NCBI GenBank assembly: GCA_029821875.1
Contig: JALGXW010000027.1
Location: 6,175-70,174 of the forward strand
Source: Candidatus Hebobacterum abditum
GTDB taxonomy: Bacteria; Armatimonadota; Hebobacteria; Hebobacterales; Hebobacteraceae
DNA length: 64,000 nt
Direction: 5' to 3'
Part shown: positions 1-12,040 of the stretch, in pieces
Layout of the letters: every line of letters begins with the position of its first letter
How positions within the stretch are numbered: the first letter of the stretch is position 1
Notes under the pieces: generated by a model
Databases searched by the model: none
What the model was told of the DNA's origin: nothing
Seen by the model: only the letters and a program-made list of their open reading frames with translations
Position numbers and translations under genes: made by a program

Positions 1-938
1 CAGGGGTCCGGGAGCGGGCGCGCGAGCGATCTCTGCCGCCACATCCAGGACGATGGGCGCGTCATACTGGAACATGACGTAGCTGTAAACCAGGCCCTGT
101 GGCAGGTCGGCGACCAGCGTATGGAGCGTCCAGCCGCTGCGGCTCTCCACGTGCACGGCATCCATGATCGAAGCCACGTGCTCGGCCGTAAGCTCCTCCT
201 GACTCTCGATGCGGCTCAGCATCTCTTCCGCGCGGCTGTAGCGCCAGCAGGGGTACTCCCCGTTCGATGGGTTCGCCACGTTGAAGTTGGTGGAGACGAG
301 GAAGCTATCGCCGTCGGGTTTGCGGGTGAACGCAACCTTGCCGTCAGGTCCGACGCCGATCACAACCGCGTCACCCGTCGCGTCGGCGAAATGCATCTGG
401 TCGTGCATCGCCGTATGCCAGCGGTGCTCCTGGACCCAGGCGATGACCTCTTCCACCGTAGCACACTCGCGCAGGATGTGGAGCAGGTAGCTGGCGTAGC
501 CACCGTGGACGGGTTCTTGGCCGGGGTGAGAGGTCACCGGTACCTTGGGCAGCCCGTTGGCGTCGTAGGCCAACCCCTTCTCGTTGAAGCCCTGCTGGAC
601 GTTGTCGGGTTCCCCGAAGTAGATCGCACCGTAATGAGTGGCGCTCCCCGGATCGACCCAGTAGGTCTGGTCGCGGTTGATGTAGTCGTCGTTAGCGCCA
701 AAGAAGACCCGATTACCCTGGGAGACAGTGAGGATGGTGCAGCGGCGAACGTCTGAGTCGTCGCATGGGGGCGATGGAGACGCTGGCGACGCACGCCCTG
801 ACTGCGCCGGACCACAGATACCCAGGAGCATGGCGCCCAACGCTAAGCAGGCCCCCAAGGCGGGAGCATCGTCCCGACGCCAGTCGGCCCCCTCGGGTTC
901 ACAGTGCCAGCCCCGGCGTCCTCCCTTTCGTCTGCCCA
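1..938 (-). CDS. Secreted Ntn-hydrolase of the choloylglycine hydrolase / linear amide C-N hydrolase type; C-terminus runs off the window
   Basis: Manual reverse-strand translation from ATG at 938: MGRRKGGRRGW...ALGACLALGAMLLGICGPAQ (signal-like), then ...RRCTILTVSQGNRVFFGANDDY, matching the Cys-Thr N-terminal nucleophile plus G-x-N-x-D context of CBAH/penicillin V acylase-type Ntn hydrolases. The frame stays open to nt 1. The plus-strand ORF 121-756 is its antisense artefact. Confidence 0.55.
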
Positions 939-1463
939 TTCTCGTACCTCCCTCCATCGGTCTCTGCGGCACACGCAGAGCGCCAGGATGAGATTCACCC
1001 GTGGGACACGCTGTCCCTGTCAGACAGCGATGGGACACCGCTGACGGTCCTGCTGGTTTGCCTGCGACTCCCGGTCATTCTGCCATGTGCGGCCATTCGG
1101 CGGCGGCCCCGGGCATGGCCTTCTCCTGCCGAGGGTCCTGTTCCGATCAGGGGCCCGTAGCGAGAATGCGAGTGGCCCCAGGATACCGGATCTGGCACCG
1201 CGGTCGGCGGGGGCACGCGCGGCACGAAGGGGAACCGCCATCCACGCGGCAGAGGCACTCCGCCGTGTCAGGTACTGACAGCGCCATCTGGAGATGCTAG
1301 AATTGGGCTGGTTTCAGCTTGCTGAAGGCGAACTGCTGAGTTCGCATCAGACGAGCAAACCCGCGAATGGCGGTGCGCGAAGGGCAAGTGAGCCGAGATG
1401 TGGCATTGCGGTCTCGGATGCTCTACACTGTCATTGTGCGGGAGATCGACACTAGCGGACACG

Positions 1464-1504
1464 GGTGCCGGCGTAGCTCAGTTGGTAGAGCGGCTGATTT
1501 GTAA
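1464..1504 (+). repeat. 41-bp direct repeat (attL-like): 3 nt + first 38 nt of tRNA-Thr(TGT), identical to 7868-7908
   Basis: Exact 41/41 identity (ggtgccggcgtagctcagttggtagagcggctgatttgtaa). Identity ends at the anticodon-loop/3' anticodon-stem boundary, then the sequences diverge (acacca vs tcagta). Confidence 0.85.
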
Positions 1505-1774
1505 ACACCACTCGCGCGTGTTGCTCTTCCCCTCCATTTGCCGCACCATCTGTTCGCCTCCGTGACATCGTCCTGGGCGTACTGCCGAGGTCAAGCATGC
1601 CGGGCGATCCCAGATATACCTGGAATGTCTCTGAGCTGCCCACCGCGCGCGCTGGCCCTCTCAGAACCCGAAGCAGTCAGAGGAGTGGAGCAAACCTTGG
1701 CGCCCGTCAGGCCGGTCTCATCGTCGACTGAGAAGCACCCGGCGTCCCGGAGCCACTGAACGCGCATACAGTGA

Positions 1775-4700
1775 TCATCTCGCCTCCTGCGCTCGGCTCT
1801 GATCCCACCACTGTTGCCACTTGTCTGCATCGGTGCCGAAGTCCTGGCCGGTGATGGCGCGGAGGGCCTTCACCTCCGCGGTGATACTCCTTGGCGTGGG
1901 TTCGCCGCGGCCGAAGTAACGGTCTGCCTCGGCCACATCCTGCCGCAACGCCTCGATCAGCGCAGGCACGGCGGCCGGGTCCCTGAGTCGACCGATGGCT
2001 TCCGCCGCACCCACGCGAGAGGCAGCAAGGCAGTGGTCTGGATCCCGGAGGACGGTGAGGAGTAGCTTCACGGTACGGCGGTCGCCCACCTTGGCGAGCG
2101 CGACGGCGGCCGCGTGCCGGACCTGGCCGTCTGGATCATCCAGGAACGGTGCTATCGCCTCCGCGTTCTGCGGGTCGCCGATCTCGCCCAGCCCGGTAAC
2201 CGCCGCCAGACGGACTCCGACACTGTCGTCCTTCAGCAAGCGCACGAGCACCGGCGTCGCCCTGGGGTCCGCTATCTGGGCCAGCGCGCGGGCCGCGGCG
2301 CGGCGATTGCGCTGATCGGAGTCGCGCGTGAGAGGGAGGATGTCCGGCACCGCGGCTCGCGATCCTATCTCGCCGAGCGCCTTGGCGGCAGCGCGCCGCA
2401 GTCCCATGTCGCTGCTGTGGAGCAGCCCGAGTAGGAATGCCTCCGCGCGCGGGCCGCCGATCCGGCCGAGCGCCCATGTGGCATACCAGGCACCGTCGAA
2501 CTCCAGTCGCTCCAGTGTGCTGATGAGCGGCTCCACCGCCCGCGGATCGACTATCTCACCCAAGACGGATATGGCCGAAACTCGCACCTGCGGGTCGGTG
2601 TCGTGAAGCAGAATGTCGATCACCGGTTCGGTGGCCCGCCGATCCTTGATCCACAATAGGGGACCCAGCGCCTTCAGCCGGACCTTCGGATCCGGGTCGC
2701 TCAGTGCGGCCAGCAACGGCTCGAGAACAGCTTTGTTCTGGGCCTGACGCAGGCCGTCGCCGAGCGCATAGGAGACCCGCCCGCGGACGTACTCATCGGG
2801 GTCGTGGATCATGCCCAGCAGCGGCGTCACCGCGCGCGGATCGCCAATGAGACCGAGCGCCTCCGCAGCAGCGCCGCGGACACTCGGGTTGCTGTCCTTC
2901 AGGGCGGCCAGGAGACACTCCACCGCGTCGGCGGCATTCGGATGACCGAGTGCCCCGGCGGCCAGAGAACGCACCTCGGGGTCTTCGTCGGCGAGGAGAC
3001 CGGAGAGCACGCCAACGGTGCCTGTGCCGTCGAGGACACGGAGCGCGCTCGAGGACGCCCAACGCACCTCCGGGTGTTGATCCTTCAGGGCAGCGGCGAG
3101 TGGCTCAATGCCCTCAGGGTCGCCGAGCGAGCCAAGTGCCGTCGCCGCGGCGGCGCGGACCTCGTAGTCTGGGTCATGCTTGAGGATCGAAGCCAGGGGC
3201 GCGATGGTCTCCTTTCGCCCGAGCTCGCCAATCGCCCGGACCGCGGCGAGGCGAACGCGCCACACGCGGTCGTCCGCCGCTCTCAGGAGCGGATCCAGCC
3301 TCTCCGGCTCGCCGATCCTGCCCAGGGCACGTGCCGATGCCTCCCTCAGTTGCCAGTCGTCATCTCGAAGTGCCAGAAGCAGGTCAGGCACTGCCTTGTC
3401 GGACTGGAGGGCGCCCAGGGCTCTGGCCGCGGCGGCCCGAAGCGCCGGGTCGCCCTCGCGGAGGATCCCGAGGAGTAGCTCTTGGGCCCGTTGATCCCTG
3501 CTATCCCCCAGCGCTCTGATGGCTGCCCGTCGCACGAGCGCCTCGGCATCGCCCAACTGATGGATGAGGGCAGACACTGCCCCCGGGCCTCGCACCCGAC
3601 CGAGTTGCTGAGCGACGCCGAATCGGACGACGGGATCGGCATCGCGCGCGGCCTCTAGCAGGGAGTCCAGCAGGACCCGCTGGGCCTCCGTGCCAGCGAA
3701 CTCCGATCGGGGCCACATCCCCCAGAGCGCAGCATAGCGAACCGCGGGATCGGGATCGCGGAGTGCTGCGGCGCGGGCCCTCCACACCTCCGGCTCGTCG
3801 CGCATCGCGACAAGGTACATCGCCTGCCGGCGGACGGCCGGGTCCTCGTCACGAGCGAGCGGAAGGATCGCGTCCAGGTCGGCGTGCTGCTGCACGCGCG
3901 CGGGACCGCGAAGACCGTAGAGCGCCGCCGCGCGCACCGACGGTACCGGATCCTGCGTGAGTGCAACCAGTGGGGCCACGGCCATGCGCATCACGTTCTC
4001 GTCGTTCGTGTGGCAGAAGGCGGCTGCGCCGCGGGCTCGTACGAGGGCATCGGGTGACTGAAACCCGTCGATCAGCCGTCCGCCCACTTGCTCATCCCCA
4101 TAGTAGCCAAGCCCGAAGGCGGCGCGCCTCCCGACGCGGTCGTCCGCGTCTGCAAGGGCGGCGAAGAGAGCGTCCCTCGCTCGCGAATCGTCAACCAGCG
4201 GGCCGAGCCCTCCCACCGCGAGGAGTCGCACCTCCGGGTCTGGGTCGCGCCCCACCTCCAGGAGTGGCGCCACGGCCTTCGAATCGCGCAGCATGCCGAG
4301 CGTATAGGCCGCAGCCTGACGCACCGAGGGACCGTCATCTCCGAGAGACTCCTCGATCCCCTCTCCTGCCGCGCGGCGAACAGCATCTCCGGAGACCTCC
4401 GCCCTTGCGGGCTCCACCATGGCGGCCAACGCCAGCAGGGCTCCCCGGCGGACGCCCGGGTTCGAGTCGCCCAGTGCGGCCGAGAGCCCGGGAAGCGCCG
4501 GCTCCCCCAATCCCGCCAGCACGCGCACGGCCTGCTCGCCCACAGTCGTATCGCGGGACTGAGACGTCCACCACGGGTCCGGGTCGAGCCGGGCATACAT
4601 GGGGTCGCCCGGCAGCTCCGTATCGTCGGCGAGCATCCCTACGAGCGCAGGGACCGCTGGCGCGACACGGTCGCGGCTCGTCTGCAGGACCGTCGATGCT

Positions 4701-5869
4701 CGGAACCGCGCAAAGGCATCCGGGGAACGAAGCTCCGCCAGCGCCTGCTCCAGATCCGGAGTGAGGCCGTCCGCGCTCAGCTGCACAGCCGCGAAGGCCG
4801 CGGCAGAGAGCAGCAGCACCGCCGCCACCCCCAGCGCCAGCTTGCGGCTCAGCCGCCGCGCTCCATCAGCTCCAGTGATCGCCTCCACACGCTTGAGCAG
4901 TGTCGACTTCCGTTCGGCGACACCGACCGAGACCAATGCGAGCCGAGCATGCGCGCGCCTCGCGGCGGCGGTGAGTGAGCGAGCGTAGCTCGTCGGCTCG
5001 GCTCCCCGCTCCATGACCCAGGCGTCGCAGAGCTGTTCCCTCGCCAGGGAGATGTGCCGGCCAGCGAGCCAGACCACCGGGTGGAAGAACAGTGGTACTG
5101 CCAGCATCCGCTGCACCACGTTGACCAGGAAGTCGTGCCTGACGATGTGCGCCATCTCGTGTGCCAGGAGAGCGTGCAGGTCACTCTCGGAGAGAGACTC
5201 CAGCCACTCCTCCGGGAGCACGATCACCGGCCTCCGCCAACCGTACAGCAGCGGCGCGCCGGCCAGCTCGCTGCTGCGCAACTCCACACGTCTGGCCACG
5301 CCGGACGCGGCGCACAAGTCTTCCAGCATCGCCTGCAACTCGGCGTTCATGACTGGCGCACTGCTCTTGAGCATCATGCGTACCCACCGGTGCCCAAGCA
5401 GCAGCCGGAGCATGACCGCGCCGCAGCCTGTGAGCCAGAGGATGGCGACCAGGCCTGGCACCCCGAGCTGTTCCCAGAGAGACGGCGCCGGAGCCGGGAT
5501 GTCGGGCGAGTCAGGCGGAACCTTCGGGTTCGGAACGGCCGGTAGGCCCGCCACGTCCATCGTGGGCGTGGCGGTTAGCATCGGGGGCGCGATCAGCCGC
5601 GCCACCTGAGCGTCGGTCACGATCTCCGCCGCGGGACGGGGCACGGCGAGCACAACCGCGGCATCGTGGCGCGCCAGCATCACTCGAAGCGGCGTCAGCA
5701 CCAGCGGCGCGAGGAGCACGAACCACCACAGGGCATGCACCGCGTGCGGCTGACGCACGCGGGCAAGCCGCTGCAAGAGCCAGGCGAGCAACCCCAGCAG
5801 GACCAGCTGCCAGGTGATCGACCATCCGATTGCCGACCAGACACGGGATAGGAGGTGTACCAGCCACAT
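1775..5869 (-). CDS. BlaR1-type M56 family membrane metalloprotease fused to ~1000 aa of HEAT (PBS lyase-like) repeats, 1364 aa
   Basis: N-terminal hydrophobic helices (WSITWQLVLLGLLAWLL; LWWFVLLAPLVLTPL; VPGLVAILWLTGCGAVMLRLLLG), HEXXH zinc motif LAHEMAHIVRHD, a further TM (LALGVAAVLLLSAAAFAAVQL), then ~30 tandem ~31-aa repeats of the form DPDxxVRxxAAxALGxIGDPRAVxPLLxxL. Start codon sits 3 bp after the blaI-like stop. Confidence 0.8.
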   Translation of the reverse strand: MWLVHLLSRVWSAIGWSITWQLVLLGLLAWLLQRLARVRQPHAVHALWWFVLLAPLVLTPLRVMLARHDAAVVLAVPRPAAEIVTDAQVARLIAPPMLTATPTMDVAGLPAVPNPKVPPDSPDIPAPAPSLWEQLGVPGLVAILWLTGCGAVMLRLLLGHRWVRMMLKSSAPVMNAELQAMLEDLCAASGVARRVELRSSELAGAPLLYGWRRPVIVLPEEWLESLSESDLHALLAHEMAHIVRHDFLVNVVQRMLAVPLFFHPVVWLAGRHISLAREQLCDAWVMERGAEPTSYARSLTAAARRAHARLALVSVGVAERKSTLLKRVEAITGADGARRLSRKLALGVAAVLLLSAAAFAAVQLSADGLTPDLEQALAELRSPDAFARFRASTVLQTSRDRVAPAVPALVGMLADDTELPGDPMYARLDPDPWWTSQSRDTTVGEQAVRVLAGLGEPALPGLSAALGDSNPGVRRGALLALAAMVEPARAEVSGDAVRRAAGEGIEESLGDDGPSVRQAAAYTLGMLRDSKAVAPLLEVGRDPDPEVRLLAVGGLGPLVDDSRARDALFAALADADDRVGRRAAFGLGYYGDEQVGGRLIDGFQSPDALVRARGAAAFCHTNDENVMRMAVAPLVALTQDPVPSVRAAALYGLRGPARVQQHADLDAILPLARDEDPAVRRQAMYLVAMRDEPEVWRARAAALRDPDPAVRYAALWGMWPRSEFAGTEAQRVLLDSLLEAARDADPVVRFGVAQQLGRVRGPGAVSALIHQLGDAEALVRRAAIRALGDSRDQRAQELLLGILREGDPALRAAAARALGALQSDKAVPDLLLALRDDDWQLREASARALGRIGEPERLDPLLRAADDRVWRVRLAAVRAIGELGRKETIAPLASILKHDPDYEVRAAAATALGSLGDPEGIEPLAAALKDQHPEVRWASSSALRVLDGTGTVGVLSGLLADEDPEVRSLAAGALGHPNAADAVECLLAALKDSNPSVRGAAAEALGLIGDPRAVTPLLGMIHDPDEYVRGRVSYALGDGLRQAQNKAVLEPLLAALSDPDPKVRLKALGPLLWIKDRRATEPVIDILLHDTDPQVRVSAISVLGEIVDPRAVEPLISTLERLEFDGAWYATWALGRIGGPRAEAFLLGLLHSSDMGLRRAAAKALGEIGSRAAVPDILPLTRDSDQRNRRAAARALAQIADPRATPVLVRLLKDDSVGVRLAAVTGLGEIGDPQNAEAIAPFLDDPDGQVRHAAAVALAKVGDRRTVKLLLTVLRDPDHCLAASRVGAAEAIGRLRDPAAVPALIEALRQDVAEADRYFGRGEPTPRSITAEVKALRAITGQDFGTDADKWQQWWDQSRAQEAR

Positions 5870-5872
5870 GGC

Positions 5873-6265
5873 CTACTCCTTTCGCGACCTGCACTCGATG
5901 AGCTGCTGAACGCGAGAGAGCTCGGCCTCCGACAGCTTCTCGTCCTCGAGCAGGCGCATGAGCAGCGCCTCCGGCGAGCCCCGAAAGGTGGTCTGGATGA
6001 GGTCGCGCAGCAGGTTTCGCTTCACCTGTCGCTCCTTCACCTTTGCGTAGTATACGTGCGCCTTGCGGGTCTCGTCCCTGCCGACAAAACCCTTGTCTTG
6101 CATCACGCGGAGCATGGTGAGCACGGTGCTGTAGGCGGGAGTTGGCTTCACCGTCAGTGCCTCAAGCACGTCGCGCACGGTGGAAGGCCCTCGATCCCAG
6201 AGCACGTTCATGATCTGCATCTCCAGGTCCCCGAATCGCGGCCGCTCTCGCTTACGCATTCCCAT
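5873..6265 (-). CDS. BlaI/MecI/CopY family transcriptional repressor (penicillinase repressor fold), 130 aa
   Basis: Protein MGMRKRERPRFGDLEMQIMNVLWDRGPSTVRDVLEAL...AYSTVLTMLRVMQDKGFVGRDETRKAHVYYAKV matches the winged-helix N-terminus of BlaI/MecI/CopY. Immediately upstream of, and translationally coupled to, the M56 protease gene. Confidence 0.85.
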   Translation of the reverse strand: MGMRKRERPRFGDLEMQIMNVLWDRGPSTVRDVLEALTVKPTPAYSTVLTMLRVMQDKGFVGRDETRKAHVYYAKVKERQVKRNLLRDLIQTTFRGSPEALLMRLLEDEKLSEAELSRVQQLIECRSRKE

Positions 6266-6278
6266 CGCTTCCTGTATC

Positions 6279-6294
6279 TACTAATATATTAGCA
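6279..6294. promoter_or_regulatory. AT-rich perfect palindrome CTAATATATTAG (6281-6292; extended near-palindrome TACTAATATATTAGCA) 16 bp upstream of the blaI start, in the divergent blaI/int intergenic region; candidate BlaI operator
   Basis: Seen in sequence. Striking AT island in ~68% GC DNA. BlaI/MecI/CopY operators are AT-rich dyads (TACA/TGTA type). Confidence 0.35.
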
Positions 6295-6386
6295 TAAAGA
6301 GTACTACTCGTCCCTTCGGCTGTCAACAGGTGAACGAGTCTTGATCCCCGGCAGGCTCTTGACGGGCACCCCAACACTCGCTATTG

Positions 6387-6400
6387 TCGTACCACTGATT
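6387..6400 (+). repeat. 14-bp direct repeat TCGTACCACTGATT, copy 1 (upstream of integrase gene)
   Basis: Identical 14-mer at 7770-7783. Adjacent GCTGATT echoes (6411-6417). Confidence 0.4.
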
Positions 6401-6465
6401 GCGGCGTACTGCTGATTTCGGGCGGGATCGTCGCTGAGCACCAGACTCCGGGGCAGGCAGGTAGA

Positions 6466-7659
6466 ATGCCTAGTCCCACAGGGGGAGGCGGCACGACGCC
6501 GGGTCAGGACGATACAGTGGAGAGCCTCAACTGGTCGGCCTTGATAGGGCGCTTTCTGCAAGCGTGGGCCGCTGAGCATCCCGGGCTTCGACCTGCGACC
6601 ACGAAGCACTATCGCGAGCAGCTGGAGACGAGATTGGCCGCCTTCGCGGCGGAACGCGAGATACCGTCGGTTCGGGATTTCACGCGTGAGCATATGCGCG
6701 CGTTTGTTACCTGGCTCGATGAACACGTGACACGACGGGGACCGATGAGCCAGCGCGGGAAGCAGATGGCGTTGAACTCCGCGAAGATGCTACTGCGATG
6801 GTGCTACAGGGAGGGGCTGCTTGCCGAGGACATCAGCAGGAGCGTGAAGGGCTACCGGCTGAACGGGGGATGGAAGCCGCAGGCTACTCGCTCAGATGAC
6901 TTGGATGCTCTCCTCGCTGCCTTCAACGCGGGCACGCCGATGGGTATCCGCAACATAGCGACGATATACATGATGGCGCTGTGCGGGCTGCGCGTCTCTG
7001 AGCTCTGCGGCCTGAACGCTGCCGATCTGAACCCGTGCGAGGGCCTTGTGACCGTGAGATCCGAGACCAGGGGAGGCACTCGCGTCCGGAGTGTTGATCT
7101 ACCTTCCGTGATCCGCGATGGGAGGCTCATGACGCGACCGGAAGTGGCGGAGGTGTTGACGGCCTGGCTGGCTGTTCGCGCGCGTTTCTTCCCCGAACTT
7201 GAGGATGCTGATCCTCTGTTCGTAGCACTTGAGCCCGGGCGCGCCTCAGCTGGTAGCGAGAAACAGGAGCCAGATGCGGGGGGTGCAGGCCGACGGATGA
7301 CCGTTGATGGGGTACGCCTGATGTTGCGGCGGGCGGCGAAGCGAGCAGGCATCGACCCGAAGCGCGTCACGCCTAACCGGCTACGACACCACTTCGGCTT
7401 AAGCGCCACCGCTGCGGGAGTCAACCAGGCGGCTCTTATGGAAGCGATGGGGCACAAGTCTCCTCTGATGACGATGCGATATGCTGCGATCACGGACGAG
7501 GACCGCAGCCGGCAGCTTGCCCGAGCCGACATTGCCGGCGGAGTCAGATTCCCTGATGCCCAGCGTCACCGCCTGCCCACCCGCGAGGATGTGGAAGGGA
7601 CTCTTGAGGAAGAGGCAAGCCTGTCTGAGATAGCGCGGAAGCTGTTCGCCCGAGAGTAG
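6466..7659 (+). CDS. Tyrosine site-specific recombinase / phage-type integrase, 397 aa
   Basis: C-terminal catalytic motifs LRHHFGLSA, MGHKSPLMT, MRYAAI (R-H-R-Y family). N-terminal SAM-like core-binding region. Ends 210 bp from tRNA-Thr. Confidence 0.85.
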   Translation: MPSPTGGGGTTPGQDDTVESLNWSALIGRFLQAWAAEHPGLRPATTKHYREQLETRLAAFAAEREIPSVRDFTREHMRAFVTWLDEHVTRRGPMSQRGKQMALNSAKMLLRWCYREGLLAEDISRSVKGYRLNGGWKPQATRSDDLDALLAAFNAGTPMGIRNIATIYMMALCGLRVSELCGLNAADLNPCEGLVTVRSETRGGTRVRSVDLPSVIRDGRLMTRPEVAEVLTAWLAVRARFFPELEDADPLFVALEPGRASAGSEKQEPDAGGAGRRMTVDGVRLMLRRAAKRAGIDPKRVTPNRLRHHFGLSATAAGVNQAALMEAMGHKSPLMTMRYAAITDEDRSRQLARADIAGGVRFPDAQRHRLPTREDVEGTLEEEASLSEIARKLFARE

Positions 7660-7769
7660 GGTATGGGGCAGCCGACGAGCCCTGCTCACGGTGATGACAA
7701 GCCGATGTCAATCTGGTAGAATCGGCCCTGAATGCGAACAGCAGAATCGGTGTCGCGCACGTACGCTGA

Positions 7770-7783
7770 TCGTACCACTGATT
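7770..7783 (+). repeat. 14-bp direct repeat TCGTACCACTGATT, copy 2 (between integrase stop and tRNA-Thr)
   Basis: Identical to 6387-6400. Candidate arm-type integrase or regulator binding site. Confidence 0.4.
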
Positions 7784-7870
7784 ATTGGATGCTGGAGACG
7801 AAGAGCCGGGTGCCGTAGGTGAGAAAATCGGCTCCTAGCTCAGAAAAAGAGTGTTCTAGGCGAATTGCGG

Positions 7871-7946
7871 TGCCGGCGTAGCTCAGTTGGTAGAGCGGCT
7901 GATTTGTAATCAGTAGGTCGCGGGTTCGAATCCTGCCGCCGGCTCC
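7871..7946 (+). tRNA. tRNA-Thr (anticodon TGT)
   Basis: Cloverleaf folded by hand: acceptor GCCGGCG/CGCCGGC, D-arm GCTC-AGTTGGTA-GAGC, anticodon stem GCTGA/TCAGT with loop TTTGTAA, T-arm GCGGG-TTCGAAT-CCTGC, discriminator T, encoded CCA. Its first 38 nt are duplicated at 1467-1504. Confidence 0.85.
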
Positions 7947-8010
7947 ACTCTTCTCGTTCGCCGGAGGTGGATGAGAAGAGTGACCTCGAGCGAAGTCGAG
8001 GGGCCACGAC

Positions 8011-8349
8011 ATGACCGCCGGCAGCTCACGGCATTTGTACATGGTGCGCTGTTCTGACGGGTCTCTCTACACCGGCATTGCCAGAGACCCCGAGGAGCGG
8101 GCCCGCGTCCACAATCAGGGACAGGGGGCAGACTACACCGCTCGACGTCGCCCTGTAGTGCTGGTCTACTCAGAGCGACATGCACGCACGTCTGCCGCCC
8201 GCGGACGTGAGCTTCAGGTCAAAGCTTGGCGGGCAGAGAAGAAGGAGCATCTTGTGCGCGGGATTCCCTCAGCAGGCTCGGGACAAGCGAATCCTGCCGC
8301 CAGCTCCAGGTGGTTTGCACGCGGCGCGCCCGCGGCGTCACGGAGATAA
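8011..8349 (+). CDS. GIY-YIG nuclease family small protein (UvrC N-terminal-like), ~112 aa
   Basis: YMVRCSDGSLYTGIARDPEERARVHNQGQGADYTARRRPVVLVYSERHARTSAARGRELQVKAWRAEKKEHLV matches the GIY...YIG...R...E...N core. Lies 65 bp after tRNA-Thr. Confidence 0.65.
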   Translation: MTAGSSRHLYMVRCSDGSLYTGIARDPEERARVHNQGQGADYTARRRPVVLVYSERHARTSAARGRELQVKAWRAEKKEHLVRGIPSAGSGQANPAASSRWFARGAPAASRR

Positions 8350-10442
8350 TGCCCCGAAGGAAGGGCCTGCCCCTTGAATCCAGGCGGCGTCCGGCGCCGC
8401 CGCCAGAGACACCTGCCCCGCCGTCCCGCCTTACGCTGGCGGCCTCGGTGGGCGTGTTCGTGTTCCTCCTCCTCGTCTATCACGCGACCCTCATCCGCAC
8501 GGTCATAGATCAAGATAGCGGCGAGCTTGTCGCCGCCGCGCATGTACTCGGGATCGCGCACCCCACTGGCTATCCGCTCTGGGTGCTGCTGGGGCGCGTG
8601 TTCGACTTCCTTCCGGTGGGTGGGACGAGTGCCTACCGGGTGGCCCTGCTGTCCGCCGTGGCGTCCGCTGCGGCCGGCGGGATTCTGGCCGCGCTCGCGA
8701 TGCGGCTGGCGCGGAACGTCGCCGCGGGGGTGCTAGCCGGGGTGGCATTCGGGCTGTGGTTTCCAGTGTGGAGCCAGGCCGTGCGGGCGGAGGTATACGG
8801 GCTGACGGCGCTACTTGCGGCGCTCGCCCTCGCTGCGGCGATCCGATGGGACGCGGATCGCTCGCCCCGCGCGCTGGCGTGGCTCGCCCTCGCCGTCGGC
8901 TTCGTCTCGATGCACCATCGGACCGCGATGCTCGCGGTGGCTCCGGCCTTCGTCGTCGCAGCCCTACTGACCAGGCCGAGACGGACGCGGTGGTACTTGG
9001 CGGCCGCGGGGCTCCTCCTTGCACCGTTCGCCTTCTACTTGTACCTGCCCATTCGCGCGGCCGCGCGGCCGCCGGTCAACTGGACCGACCCAGTGACATG
9101 GGACCGGTTCTGGGAGCACGTGCTGGCAACCCAGTACACGGGGTACGCCTTCTCTCACACCGCTGGGCAGATGGCGGGTCTCTTCGAGCGGCTGCTCCCG
9201 GAGTTGCTCGTGCCCAGCGGGGCCTGGGCTACGGTGCTCGCCCTGATCGCGCTGCCGTTCGCGGCCTGGGGCTGGCGGCAGTGGCTCCGGCGACGGCCGA
9301 CCATCGCGGGCTCCCTGCTGGCGGGGGCGGCGCTGCTGGTGTACTGGGTCCTGCAGTGGGGCGAGACAACTGACCTGAAGGTCTTCTTCGGGCCGGCTGG
9401 AGCGATAGTCGCGCTCTGCGGCGCAGTCGGGATGGGGGCGGGCGGCAGGCACTTGGCCTCGCGAGCAGCGGCGATGGCGGCGGGCGTCGCGGTGTGCGTT
9501 GTCCTGCTCCTTGGCAACTGGGGGCGGGCCGATCTCAGCAATCTCTGGCAGCACCGCGACCGTTGGGTCGCGATGCTGTCATCGCTGGAGCCGGACGCCA
9601 TCTTCATCTCGGACAACGATGTCCCGAGCTTCGCGACGATGTACCTGCAGACCGTGGAGGAGATGCGACCGGACGTGACGCTCATTCGCGTCGTGCCGCT
9701 GCAGATGGACTGGTACGTCGGAACGCTGGCGGATGAGACGATACGGGAGCCGGTGCGCCGATCGTGGGAGGAGACGGAGGCGGCGCTGTCGGGCCTGGCG
9801 GCGAGGGAGCTCACGCGGTACAAGTGGGAGCGGACGGCAGTCTTCGCCTACCTCCTGGCCCAGCGGCTGGATAGACGTCGGCCCGTGTACGCGCTGCACG
9901 GGCCGAGGACCATAGAGTTGACGGGGCCGCCGTACTTCGTCGGGATCAGCGAGGATCTGGTGGCCCTTCGCGCCGCGCGCCCCGGGCCGGTACCGGCCGA
10001 AGCGGGGGAGGCGACGGCCGCGTTCCCAGGCGGCATTGCGCTGACCGAATTCGTACTGGGGCGGAGTGAGGTCGGCACCGGAGAGCTGATGGAGTTTGAG
10101 AGCCGCTGGCGAGTGCCGACACGAGTGCCGGGGCCGGCGCAGTTCGCCGTGCGGCTCGTGCCGCGCGACGTGGAGAAGGAGCGCTTCGCCGAGGAGCTGA
10201 CGCCGAACGGTCGCTTCACTCAGGCCTTCCCGCTGCTGGCGAGCCAATGGGGCCTCGCGCCCCTGGCGGAGGGCACTGAATTCGAGCAGGCGGGGGTGCT
10301 CATCGTGCCTACTAACTGCCCGCCCGGGCCGTGCGCAGTGGAGGTTGGCATCGGGCCGCTGTACAGCCCGGAGAACGTGGGCTGGGCCGAGGTCGCGCAG
10401 ATCGAAGTGGCGCCCCGGCCGCTGCCGTCGAATGCTCCCTAG
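8349..10442 (+). CDS. DUF2723-type polytopic membrane protein (PMT/TMEM260-like glycosyltransferase family)
   Basis: N-terminal TM then DQDSGELVAAAHVLGIAHPTGYPLW motif characteristic of DUF2723. Many TM helices, C-terminal soluble domain. Start chosen at ATG 8349 (MPRRKG...) rather than the ORF-track 8226, which overlaps the GIY-YIG gene. Confidence 0.6.
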   Translation: MPRRKGLPLESRRRPAPPPETPAPPSRLTLAASVGVFVFLLLVYHATLIRTVIDQDSGELVAAAHVLGIAHPTGYPLWVLLGRVFDFLPVGGTSAYRVALLSAVASAAAGGILAALAMRLARNVAAGVLAGVAFGLWFPVWSQAVRAEVYGLTALLAALALAAAIRWDADRSPRALAWLALAVGFVSMHHRTAMLAVAPAFVVAALLTRPRRTRWYLAAAGLLLAPFAFYLYLPIRAAARPPVNWTDPVTWDRFWEHVLATQYTGYAFSHTAGQMAGLFERLLPELLVPSGAWATVLALIALPFAAWGWRQWLRRRPTIAGSLLAGAALLVYWVLQWGETTDLKVFFGPAGAIVALCGAVGMGAGGRHLASRAAAMAAGVAVCVVLLLGNWGRADLSNLWQHRDRWVAMLSSLEPDAIFISDNDVPSFATMYLQTVEEMRPDVTLIRVVPLQMDWYVGTLADETIREPVRRSWEETEAALSGLAARELTRYKWERTAVFAYLLAQRLDRRRPVYALHGPRTIELTGPPYFVGISEDLVALRAARPGPVPAEAGEATAAFPGGIALTEFVLGRSEVGTGELMEFESRWRVPTRVPGPAQFAVRLVPRDVEKERFAEELTPNGRFTQAFPLLASQWGLAPLAEGTEFEQAGVLIVPTNCPPGPCAVEVGIGPLYSPENVGWAEVAQIEVAPRPLPSNAP

Positions 10443-10468
10443 TTGACACGGCAAAGCAACGTGCGACC

Positions 10469-10497
10469 TTGACGCTGGGGAGGCTGCGTGCTAGTAT
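10469..10497 (+). promoter_or_regulatory. Sigma70-type promoter TTGACG-N17-TAGTAT for the tRNA-Tyr/tRNA-Thr operon (a second TTGACA at 10443)
   Basis: Consensus-like -35/-10 hexamers with 17-nt spacer, ~40 bp upstream of tRNA-Tyr. Confidence 0.45.
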
Positions 10498-10538
10498 CGA
10501 CTCAGTCGCGGGTTCCATCTCGCGGCTGTCGTTGTCTC

Positions 10539-10624
10539 GGAGGGGTGCCCGAGCTGGACAAAGGGAGCAGACTGTAAATCTGCCGGCGAAGCCTACGCAG
10601 GTTCGAATCCTGCCCCCTCCACCA
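10539..10624 (+). tRNA. tRNA-Tyr (anticodon GTA), long variable arm
   Basis: Acceptor GGAGGGG/CCCCTCC, anticodon stem-loop GCAGA-CTGTAAA-TCTGC, variable arm CGGCGAAGCCTAC, T-arm GCAGG-TTCGAAT-CCTGC, CCA encoded. Confidence 0.85.
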
Positions 10625-10658
10625 GGCTTCTATGGTATAGAGCGACAGGCGCGCCGAA

Positions 10659-10734
10659 GCCCACATAGCTCAGGTGGCAGAGCGTATCCTTGGTAAGGAT
10701 AAGGTCCCCGGTTCGAATCCGGGTGTGGGCTCCA
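10659..10734 (+). tRNA. tRNA-Thr (anticodon GGT)
   Basis: Acceptor GCCCACA/TGTGGGC, D-arm GCTC-AGGTGGCA-GAGC, anticodon stem-loop TATCC-TTGGTAA-GGATA, T-arm CCCGG-TTCGAAT-CCGGG, CCA encoded. Confidence 0.85.
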
Positions 10735-10740
10735 GACCTG

Positions 10741-10763
10741 AAGCGGGAGCACTGCTCCCGCTT
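10741..10763. terminator. Perfect hairpin AAGCGGGAGC-ACTG-CTCCCGCTT between the tRNA operon (+) and nagA (-); candidate bidirectional terminator
   Basis: 9-10 bp GC-rich stem, 4-nt loop. No strong U-tract. Confidence 0.4.
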
Positions 10764-10783
10764 ACGCCATCTGTCCGTGCGTA

Positions 10784-11935
10784 TCAGGCGCGGTACACGA
10801 CCTGTCCCATCACTATCGTGCTTACAACGTCGAGATCCTCGTCGAGGACGACGATGTCGGCGTCCTTGCCGGGCTCGAGGCTTCCCTTGCGGTCGGCCAC
10901 TCCGATTGAGCGCGCTGGCGTGAGGGTCGCCATCTGGATCGCCTCTGGCAGCGAGGCGATGGTGAACTCGGCGATGTTCCGAACCGCCTGGTCGAGCGTG
11001 AGCGCGCTCCCGGCAAGCGTGCCGTCGGGCAGGCGGACCGCGCCTTCCTTGACCACGACCTTCTGACCGCCCAGCTCGTACTCGCCATCCGGCATGCCGG
11101 CCCCACTGATGGCGTCGGTGATGGCCACGGCTCGCTCGGGACCCTTCAGGCGAACGACCATATCCACGATCGCCGGATGAAGGTGAACTCCGTCGGCGAT
11201 GAACTCGGCGTAGATCTCGTCGAGCAGGAGCACGCCGCCGACGGTGCCGGGCTTGCGGTGATGCAGTCCCTCCATCTGGTTGAAGGTGTGGGTGGCGTGG
11301 TTGAGGCCGTGCTGCACGGCCTCGGCGAGTTCCTCGTAGGTAGCGGATGAGTGGCCGACGACAACGGCCGCGCCCTGGGCCCGAGCGAACGGGATGAGGT
11401 CCCTGTTCTCCTCGATCTCCGGGGCGAGGGTGACAAGCTTGATGTTGCCGAGAGAGAACAGATCCCTGTAGTCGATGGCGGCCGCGTGGGTGATGTGCTG
11501 CTCCGGTTGCGCGCCCTTCTTCTCTGCGTCGATGCAGGGCCCTTCGAGGTGGACGCCGAGGGGCTGCGCGCCGCCCTCGATCGGGTTCTCCATGCAGTCC
11601 TTCACGGCCCGCACGGAAGCCATGATGTCTTCGGTCGGCTGAGTCAGAGTGGTGGGGCAGAACGAGGTGACACCGTGGTTGGCGAAGAACTTCGCCATTC
11701 CCTCAATGGCGTCCCGCGTGGCATCCATCGTATCGTGGCCGGCGCTCCCGTGGACGTGGACGTCGACATAGCCCGGCGCAACGATACGTCCTCTGGCGTC
11801 TATCGTCTCGTCGATGTCGTCTCGCGCAAGGCCGGGGCCGACCGCGAAGATCTTACCGTCTTCGATGATGACATCAGCCTGCTCGAAGACCTCGAGCGGG
11901 GTGAGAACCATACCGGCTCTGATTGCCATTCTCAC
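10784..11935 (-). CDS. nagA: N-acetylglucosamine-6-phosphate deacetylase
   Basis: Amidohydrolase metal-binding signature VDVHVHGSAGHD near the N-terminus. Full-length (~380 aa) similarity pattern of NagA (GVHLEGP, VVVGHS, ITDAISGAG). Confidence 0.85.
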   Translation of the reverse strand: MRMAIRAGMVLTPLEVFEQADVIIEDGKIFAVGPGLARDDIDETIDARGRIVAPGYVDVHVHGSAGHDTMDATRDAIEGMAKFFANHGVTSFCPTTLTQPTEDIMASVRAVKDCMENPIEGGAQPLGVHLEGPCIDAEKKGAQPEQHITHAAAIDYRDLFSLGNIKLVTLAPEIEENRDLIPFARAQGAAVVVGHSSATYEELAEAVQHGLNHATHTFNQMEGLHHRKPGTVGGVLLLDEIYAEFIADGVHLHPAIVDMVVRLKGPERAVAITDAISGAGMPDGEYELGGQKVVVKEGAVRLPDGTLAGSALTLDQAVRNIAEFTIASLPEAIQMATLTPARSIGVADRKGSLEPGKDADIVVLDEDLDVVSTIVMGQVVYRA

Positions 11936-12040
11936 TTTATCTGCTCTGCCTCAGCCACTTAGGTCCTAGAGCAGTGCGACGCACAGCGCTGGATGGACAG
12001 TGTGAGGAGCCGAGCTACACCGAGGCCATGGGGGCACGTA

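Follow-up and report, generated by a model that had tools for sequence, protein, structure and literature searches.

In the 64-kb stretch of DNA analysed here (the window), an AT-rich palindrome lies between a gene for a BlaI-like repressor and a divergently transcribed integrase gene (int). The locus raises the question of whether BlaI bound at this palindrome would control its own operon only, or would also repress int, directly or via the shared divergent region, with cleavage of BlaI leading to int expression and excision. The second possibility was the proposal of an earlier note on this DNA. Its description of the flanking genes was borne out: they encode a BlaI-family repressor (PF03965), a protein combining an M56 domain with HEAT repeats, and a Phage_integrase recombinase.

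We first consider the palindrome itself. CTAATATATTAG, at 6281-6292, is its own reverse complement over all 12 bp, and both its position and its self-complementarity agree with the original description. Perfect 12-bp palindromes number 21 in the window, against about 26 in mononucleotide shuffles. CTAATATATTAG (10/12 A/T) is the sole one among them with at least 10 A/T positions; such palindromes are expected 0.025 times per window and were seen in one of 40 shuffles. Measured over 12, 20 or 35 nt, the AT content of the 64 kb is highest at this site, and a search for the motif allowing up to two mismatches returned one occurrence in the window. The GC content of the window had been put at ~68%; measured values were 0.60-0.71, mostly 0.64-0.66 (about 65%). 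Extended on both sides, the palindrome becomes a 16-bp dyad, TACTAA-TATA-TTAGCA (6279-6294), in which one pair is mismatched. Scanning the window for BlaI-type dyads gave none near the int promoter and none elsewhere upstream of blaI besides 6279-6294; the remaining matches, at 15.3 and 38.7 kb, are at chance level.

The blaI-like gene (5873-6265, minus strand) encodes a member of the BlaI/MecI/CopY family, matching Pfam PF03965 (Penicillinase_R) with an E value of 2.5e-30 and a score of 105.6 bits for a cut-off of 22.6. NCBIfam CopY/BlaI/MecI models also matched, all under their equivalog cut-offs, hence we treat the protein as a family member and not as a named protein. The start of the 130-aa reading (6265) differs from database calls. 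The probable start is the ATG at 6259 (Met3), giving 128 aa and a protein that begins MRKRE as in all orthologues, with a ribosome-binding site, AGGAAG (6273->6268), 8 nt upstream. With this start the palindrome is 22 nt from blaI, and not 16 bp as counted from 6265. No blaI paralogue was found in the window. The next gene, blaR (1775-5869, minus strand), begins 3 nt past the blaI stop, indicating that the two genes form an operon. Its 1364-aa product is a BlaR1-like membrane metalloprotease (Pfam PF05569 and HEAT_2). The Peptidase_M56 domain (PF05569, E 8.2e-32) covers residues 17-331, and the HExxH motif, HEMAH at residue 237, is located between the third and fourth of four hydrophobic segments, which are followed by ~1000 aa of HEAT repeats (HEAT_2, E 4e-142). 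The repressor gene is thus accompanied, in the same operon, by the gene of a cognate M56 zinc protease with HExxH.

For this operon, a promoter was deduced from conservation in four loci: it would lie at 6298-6326 on the minus strand, with TTGACA (6326->6321), a 17-nt spacer and TACTCT (6303->6298). It has 9/12 consensus matches, and its weak -10 matches at just 3 of 6 positions, which explains why it was missed by the promoter scan. In the blaI direction, the order is TTGACA, 17 nt, TACTCT, ttatg, CTAATATATTAGTA, ..., AGGAAG, ..., ATG. The dyad begins 4 nt past the -10 and spans about -3 to +13 of the proposed promoter. Since it is placed between the -10 hexamer and the ribosome-binding site, it would cover the expected transcription start. 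An inverted repeat with the features of an operator would in this way overlap the repressor's own promoter.

Is this arrangement conserved? Three BlaI orthologues (P0002, P0003 and P0005) are 79-81% identical to the window protein, and downstream of each gene comes an M56 gene. Further orthologues, P0006-P0031, have 57-76% identity. Their upstream regions share a common layout: TTGACA, 16-17 nt, TATGCT or TACGCT (TAYNCT), 6-7 nt, TCAATATATTAGTA, a ribosome-binding site and ATG. A (T/C)(C/T)AATATATTAGTA block is kept at the same position in loci L082 and L083-86, with an imperfect left half-site, TATCAA. Outside the promoter and the AATATATTAGTA block, the intergenic DNA is unalignable among the orthologue loci. 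The upstream neighbours of the orthologous blaI genes are CorA or other genes. Conservation of the palindrome, which the earlier note had suggested looking for in orthologous islands, was observed upstream of orthologous blaI genes, and the palindrome is absent from all integrase-only relatives described below.

An alternative reading of the AT-rich block is that of a promoter feature, either an easily melted start or an alternative -10 (TATATT), and not a repressor site. Indeed, the block contains TATATT, with 5/6 matches to the -10 consensus, and the -10 of L087, spaced 17 nt from TTGACA, is overlapped by a related site. However, the distance between TTGACA and the block is 29-31 nt in L082, L083 and the window itself, too far for the block to serve as the -10, and no -35 precedes it at proper spacing. 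Moreover, the conserved part includes TTAGTA, and the dyad symmetry fits the class found at most BlaI promoters (below). We consider this reading quite unlikely. Another possibility is that the dyad is bound by an AT-targeting regulator, a nucleoid-associated protein or xenogeneic silencer, while BlaI acts elsewhere; the dyad is after all the most AT-rich spot of the 64 kb, in horizontally acquired DNA. Against this, it is the specific sequence and not AT content alone that is conserved with blaI across orthologues, the AT island of ~35 nt is short for silencer nucleation, and no alternative BlaI-type dyad is present upstream of blaI. This makes such a regulator very improbable.

We then compared the dyad with the wider family, using 81 upstream regions of BlaI homologues (38-49% identical) from 80 genomes of Acidobacteriota, Planctomycetota and others. 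A TAC..GTA dyad of 6-N4-6 geometry, with at most one mismatched pair, was present in 71 of the 81 regions, compared with 5 of 1498 control segments of 120 nt. Two such dyads were found in 46 of the 81. In the usual arrangement, TACGAA-N4-TTCG is fused to the -35 TTGACA and a second dyad, TACGAA-N4-TTCGTA, lies over the -10. The dominant half-site TACGAA and the window half-site TACTAA differ at one position, with the change mirrored in the other half. Several lineages have TACTAA or CTAA-N4-TTAG variants, the latter for instance in L006-8, L046 and L066. Taken with the position and sequence kept in orthologues, this shared geometry supports the suggestion that the palindrome is a BlaI-type operator at the blaI promoter.

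Compared with the double-dyad promoters (loci L001-L080; Acidobacteriota, Planctomycetota and others), the window has a repressor of the same protein family, an M56 protease gene following it and the same 6-N4-6 geometry, with one symmetric change (G to T) in the half-site. Two differences characterise the window clade. Its dyad centre and half-sites are entirely A/T, unlike those of L001-L080, and it carries a single dyad after the -10 and not dyads over the -35 and -10: one dyad per promoter was counted in the window, L082 and L083, while L087 may have two. The repression geometry in this clade would hence be unlike that of the majority.

BlaI, MecI and CopY bind TACA/TGTA-type dyads that overlap the promoters of their own genes; for the cop operator, the definition has been revised to a site of 16 nt (PMC7253601). 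With the bla and mec operators of Staphylococcus and Bacillus and with the cop boxes, the window locus shares the repressor family, the operon with an M56 HExxH protease, and, at the promoter of the repressor gene itself, an inverted repeat of ~16 bp that has TAC.../...GTA ends. The half-site is different: TACTAA with a 4-nt centre, and not TACA-NN-TGTA. The canonical core TACA-NN-TGTA (RNYKACANNYGTMRNY; consensus from PMC7253601) is not matched by TACTAA-TATA-TTAGCA, which resembles the canonical box solely in its TAC/GTA-type ends and its span of 16 nt. Judged by its sequence, the window dyad belongs to a divergent specificity class and is not a Firmicute box; it is a putative further member of the BlaI/MecI/CopY operator class. 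Other differences concern the number of operators, one dyad downstream of the -10 where the known systems have two, and the sensor, which consists of ~1000 aa of HEAT repeats instead of the penicillin-binding domain of BlaR1/MecR1. Furthermore, the window has no beta-lactamase, PBP2a or copper ATPase output gene, and the divergent neighbour is an integrase. A literature search for HEAT-type BlaR1 proteins or BlaI-controlled integrases found nothing.

On the other side of the intergenic region, int (6466-7659, plus strand) encodes a tyrosine recombinase, an Xer-like integrase (Pfam PF00589, E 9.5e-23; PHROG 1 integrase, E 1e-34). Its start is ambiguous: ATG 6466, GTG 6517 (the NCBI call, with AGGA 7 nt upstream) or that of a 341-aa JGI call. 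The catalytic motifs GLRVSE (Arg-I), NRLRH (xRLRH, Arg-II) and GHKSPLMTMRY (GHxSPLMTxRY, His/Tyr) are conserved in the family, and the His-II position varies (N, H or R). Five relatives with enough DNA were available (L089, L090, L091/92, L106 and L108/109; 63-78% identity). Closer relatives were sought elsewhere: metagenome contigs contained distant ones only (25-42% identity), a protein scan of viral contigs gave none, and identity in phage and plasmid records was at most 28%.

The integrase has its own promoter at 6359-6387 (plus strand), composed of TTGACG (6359-6364), a 17-nt spacer and TATTGT (6382-6387); the promoter scan found this one site against 0.2 expected. It is directly abutted by two tandem boxes, CGTACCACTGATT (6388-6400) and CGTACTGCTGATT (6405-6417), on the plus strand. 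A third CGTACCACTGATT box, preceded by a CGTACG half-box, lies at 7771-7783 (plus strand), ~90 nt upstream of a tRNA gene. The promoter, in the form cTTGACG-17-TAYTRT, is kept upstream of int in L089, L090, L091, L106 and L108, and the two tandem CGTACYACYGATT boxes plus a third box ~90 nt before tRNA-Thr(TGT) recur in all five relatives. These CGTACYACYGATT-type tandem boxes probably bind Int or another regulator. The intergenic region was correctly assumed to hold the int promoter; this promoter is a separate module, kept in five relatives that are devoid of blaI.

The boxes had also been considered in another light. A 14-bp perfect repeat, TCGTACCACTGATT (6387-6400 and 7770-7783), flanks int and could be taken for a target duplication of an integrase cassette. 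This was rejected because in every relative the boxes, two plus one, are conserved but non-identical. A metagenome search for the empty site predicted from this duplication, that is from a wrong boundary hypothesis, gave 0 matches.

The boundaries of the element are instead marked by a tRNA gene. An intact tRNA-Thr(TGT) is located at 7872-7947 (plus strand; ARAGORN; Rfam tRNA, 75 bits), and 7869-7909 (attR) is identical at 41/41 nt to 1464-1504 (attL, plus strand), which contains a displaced, truncated 5' half of the same tRNA. The truncated half itself (1467-1504) ends in the anticodon loop (...CTGATTTGTAA). These 41-bp direct repeats, in the same orientation, bracket int, and none is expected by chance. 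They place blaR, blaI and int together in a 6405-bp segment, in agreement with the earlier view that the genes belong to an integrative element. An Rfam scan of 1-12000 detected three tRNAs and nothing else. As read from these repeats, the segment is a 6.4-kb integrative element, predicted to have inserted in the anticodon loop of tRNA-Thr(TGT) and to replace the 5' half of the tRNA together with its promoter. An element-borne promoter for the restored tRNA-Thr, ATGACA, 17 nt, (TG)TAGAAT, was found at 7694-7722 (plus strand; promoter scan 10/12, extended -10), and TGACA...TCTGnTAGAATC (TGACA-17-TGnTAGAAT) is invariant in five loci.

The same att geometry was observed in the relatives L089, L090, L091, L106 and L108/109, where units of 1648-1675 bp (1.65 kb) carry int alone and sit in differing left-hand contexts. 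The intact tRNA copy and the truncated one differ at tRNA position 20 in L089, L090 and L106, which may reflect genuine heterologous integrations whose crossover fell within the anticodon stem-loop. In tandem arrays found in four relatives, a paralogous integrase (~49% identity) immediately adjoins the truncated half on its left. Only the window element has cargo, ~4.7 kb with blaIR, its promoter and the candidate operator, located between attL and the int promoter. The left arm aligns too weakly with the relatives for the junctions of the blaIR insertion to be located. If the boxes were arm-type sites, one might speculate that the insertion placed them 4.8 kb away from the core, with mobility perhaps crippled as a result. 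We also derived the junctions that excision would produce. For attB, native upstream DNA (...GGACACGGGT) is predicted to be joined to the full tRNA through ...TTTGTAATCAG, and for attP the prediction is ...GAATTGCGGT-GCCGGCG...TTTGTAA-ACACCACTCG. A search of viral contigs for the attP junction gave 0 matches.

The presence of a recombinase raises the possibility that the palindrome is a recombination site or a junction scar, either an integrase core-type site or the boundary of the blaIR insertion. Core sites of tyrosine recombinases are inverted repeats, and the palindrome is close to the right-hand limit of the DNA that the integrase-only relatives lack. This reading was rejected and has, in our view, a next to negligible probability: the same motif is found upstream of orthologous blaI genes with neither integrase nor tRNA nearby, and it is missing from every integrase-only relative. 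In addition, the actual att repeats are tRNA-Thr 5' halves, and the two junction regions of the blaIR insertion share no repeats.

The element resembles Islander-type tRNA islands in having the integrase inside, an intact tRNA and a displaced fragment as direct repeats, and tandem arrays. The Islander database filter accepts a 5' fragment upstream of a tRNA gene as island geometry (PMC4383910). The window element differs in supplying the 5' half of the tRNA and a promoter, and not the usual 3' end, and its relatives, of just 1.65 kb, carry int alone. It likewise resembles dusA-specific elements, which replace the 5' end of a gene (PMC4482086). As to the cargo, SCCmec and the Macrococcus McRImecD islands carry a MecI/BlaI-MecR1/BlaR1 module and their own recombinase (PMC5341023). 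The window element similarly bears a repressor-protease module on a site-specific element with its own recombinase, but the recombinases and targets differ, and a resistance gene is under the control of the SCCmec/McRImecD module, which is not known to act on the recombinase.

Does BlaI then gate the integrase? Several observations would be compatible with such control: blaI, blaR and int share one element bounded by att repeats, the -35 hexamers of blaI and int are just 32 bp apart, and a weak promoter-like sequence on the plus strand, TTCCCA-17-TAATAT (6259-6287; 8/12 matches), overlaps the candidate operator. An output gene of the BlaI system other than its own operon is not evident locally, which leaves room for int as an output. 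However, the operator is ~72 bp from the conserved int promoter, whose start region is held by boxes that are found in blaI-less relatives. Its centre (6286.5) is at about -108 relative to the expected int start, which is not a repressing position, and the intergenic region contains no second BlaI-type dyad. The dyad does not overlap the int promoter. Moreover, the same operator is present in orthologues without any integrase.

The linkage of the two genes was examined from both sides. When the integrase was searched by tblastn against all 87 BlaI loci (826 kb), the only matches were to the window's own copy, and blaI was found in 0 of the five integrase relatives. The linkage is thus seen in 1 of 87 BlaI loci and is not conserved among related elements. 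Since int modules occur without blaI and blaI genes occur with other neighbours, we regard it as a one-off juxtaposition. Repression of int by BlaI bound at the palindrome accordingly appears quite unlikely. The int promoter module appears to be independent of BlaI, and the operator would be fully explained by blaI autoregulation.

The gating proposal had also been presented as a new kind of switch. Proteolytic inactivation of a repressor is known to induce element excision in systems such as ImmR/ImmA of ICEBs1 and those of CI/SetR type. The proposed switch would share with ImmR/ImmA a repressor and a dedicated metalloprotease carried on an integrative element beside int. ImmR/ImmA-type systems have operators that overlap the promoter for excision or transfer, and the linkage is maintained from element to element. 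The window operator, in contrast, lies off the promoter of int, and its linkage to this gene is confined to a single locus. Control of int by BlaI, against which the evidence speaks, would have as its novelty a new input, BlaR1-type sensing, to the known logic of protease-cleaved repressors. The broader scenario, in which the element is still mobile and capture of blaI-blaR1(HEAT) beside the int promoter couples an extracytoplasmic signal to int, resulting in signal-gated excision, seems highly unlikely to us. Two routes of coupling are conceivable: the weak plus-strand promoter overlapping the operator (6259-6287), or supercoiling and RNA-polymerase interplay between the back-to-back promoters.

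The reading that we retain is ordinary autorepression: 6279-6294 is probably the autoregulatory BlaI operator of blaI-blaR1, with int driven independently. It is favoured by the dyads of the orthologues and of the family at large and by the hallmarks of the M56 partner. In this model, BlaI made from the adjoining gene would bind the single operator at 6279-6294, and the bound dimer would block initiation or promoter escape, holding the blaI-blaR1 operon low. By analogy with BlaR1/MecR1, the HEAT-repeat domain of the M56 protease would sense a signal and activate the zinc-protease loop; the activated protease would cleave BlaI and derepress the operon. Independently of BlaI, int would run from its own conserved promoter, with its start region under the two CGTACYACYGATT boxes. 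As cargo, the blaIR operon would have been inserted between attL and the int promoter of an element whose family otherwise consists of 1.65-kb, integrase-only units.

For the biology of mobile elements the interest of the locus is modest: integrase-only units target the anticodon loop of tRNA-Thr(UGU), and one of them gained a signalling operon as cargo. For the repressor family, the proposed operator TACTAA-N4-TTAGTA departs at one position from the widespread TACGAA-N4-TTCGTA and could serve as a starting point for predicting regulons. Together with the promoter map, it would be useful for BlaI/BlaR1-like systems with non-penicillin sensors, a large and uncharacterised class in soil bacteria.

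The public gene calls disagree on the start codons of both the repressor gene blaI (window 5873-6265) and the integrase gene int (6466-7659). In the JGI call blaI begins at Met16, giving a product of 115 aa, and int encodes 341 aa; the NCBI call starts int at GTG 6517 and gives 380 aa. Judging from the N-termini of its orthologues, we favour ATG 6259 as the blaI start.

We observed a near-universal promoter architecture about 100 nt upstream of the BlaI homologues (loci L001-L080), which come from metagenome-assembled genomes of Acidobacteriota, Planctomycetota, Verrucomicrobiota and Gemmatimonadota. It comprises two dyads, TACGAA-N4-TTCG fused to the -35 element TTGACA and TACGAA-N4-TTCGTA over the -10, with lineage-specific half-site variants such as TACGAC, TACTAC and CTAA. 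Upstream of the blaI orthologue of locus L087 (about 540-575), two adjoining sites are apparently present, TATTATATTAGTA over the -10 followed by CCAATAAATTGAG, whereas the window clade carries a single site.

Around int, the window contains three CGTACYACYGATT boxes, two directly 3′ to the int -10 (6388-6400 and 6405-6417) and one about 90 nt ahead of the tRNA (7771-7783), accompanied by a CGTACG motif (7760-7765). These boxes are kept in all the integrase relatives and contain CTGATT, which also occurs in the anticodon stem-loop of tRNA-Thr. They could be arm-type sites of the integrase or an operator.

On the other side of tRNA-Thr(TGT), the last 21 nt of the tRNA (window 7927-7947) recur with one mismatch 361 bp downstream (8288-8308), and the two copies enclose a GIY-YIG ORF of 112 aa (8011-8349). 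In L091, a locus of an integrase relative, a 3′-end repeat lies just about 40 nt past the tRNA and the GIY-YIG gene is absent. The window arrangement suggests a second insertion of very small size, or what is left of one, at the same tRNA. The order int, tRNA-Thr(TGT), TMEM260 is common to L091 and the window, where a pair of tRNA genes (10539-10734), tRNA-Tyr(GTA) and tRNA-Thr(GGT), separated by 35 nt, lies downstream of the TMEM260-like glycosyltransferase gene.

The relatives carry a family of integrase-only units of 1.65 kb (L089 7751-9488, L090 3843-5593, L091 88-1815, L106 3936-5616 and L108 1238-2965). Every unit is bounded by a 38-nt truncated 5′ half of tRNA-Thr(TGT) and the intact tRNA, whose 5′ half is part of the unit, as is a conserved tRNA promoter of the unit's own; truncated and intact copies differ at tRNA position 20 in L089, L090 and L106. 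Directly left of the truncated half lies a paralogous integrase of about 49% identity in four loci (L089 3021-4205, L090 1627-2763, L106 2592-3722 and L108 1-1062). In L089, three cargo genes are located between this paralogue and the tRNA fragment; among their products are a protein with HEAT repeats and one with an FGE-sulfatase domain. Since the paralogous integrase adjoins the truncated tRNA half, the elements therefore form tandem arrays.
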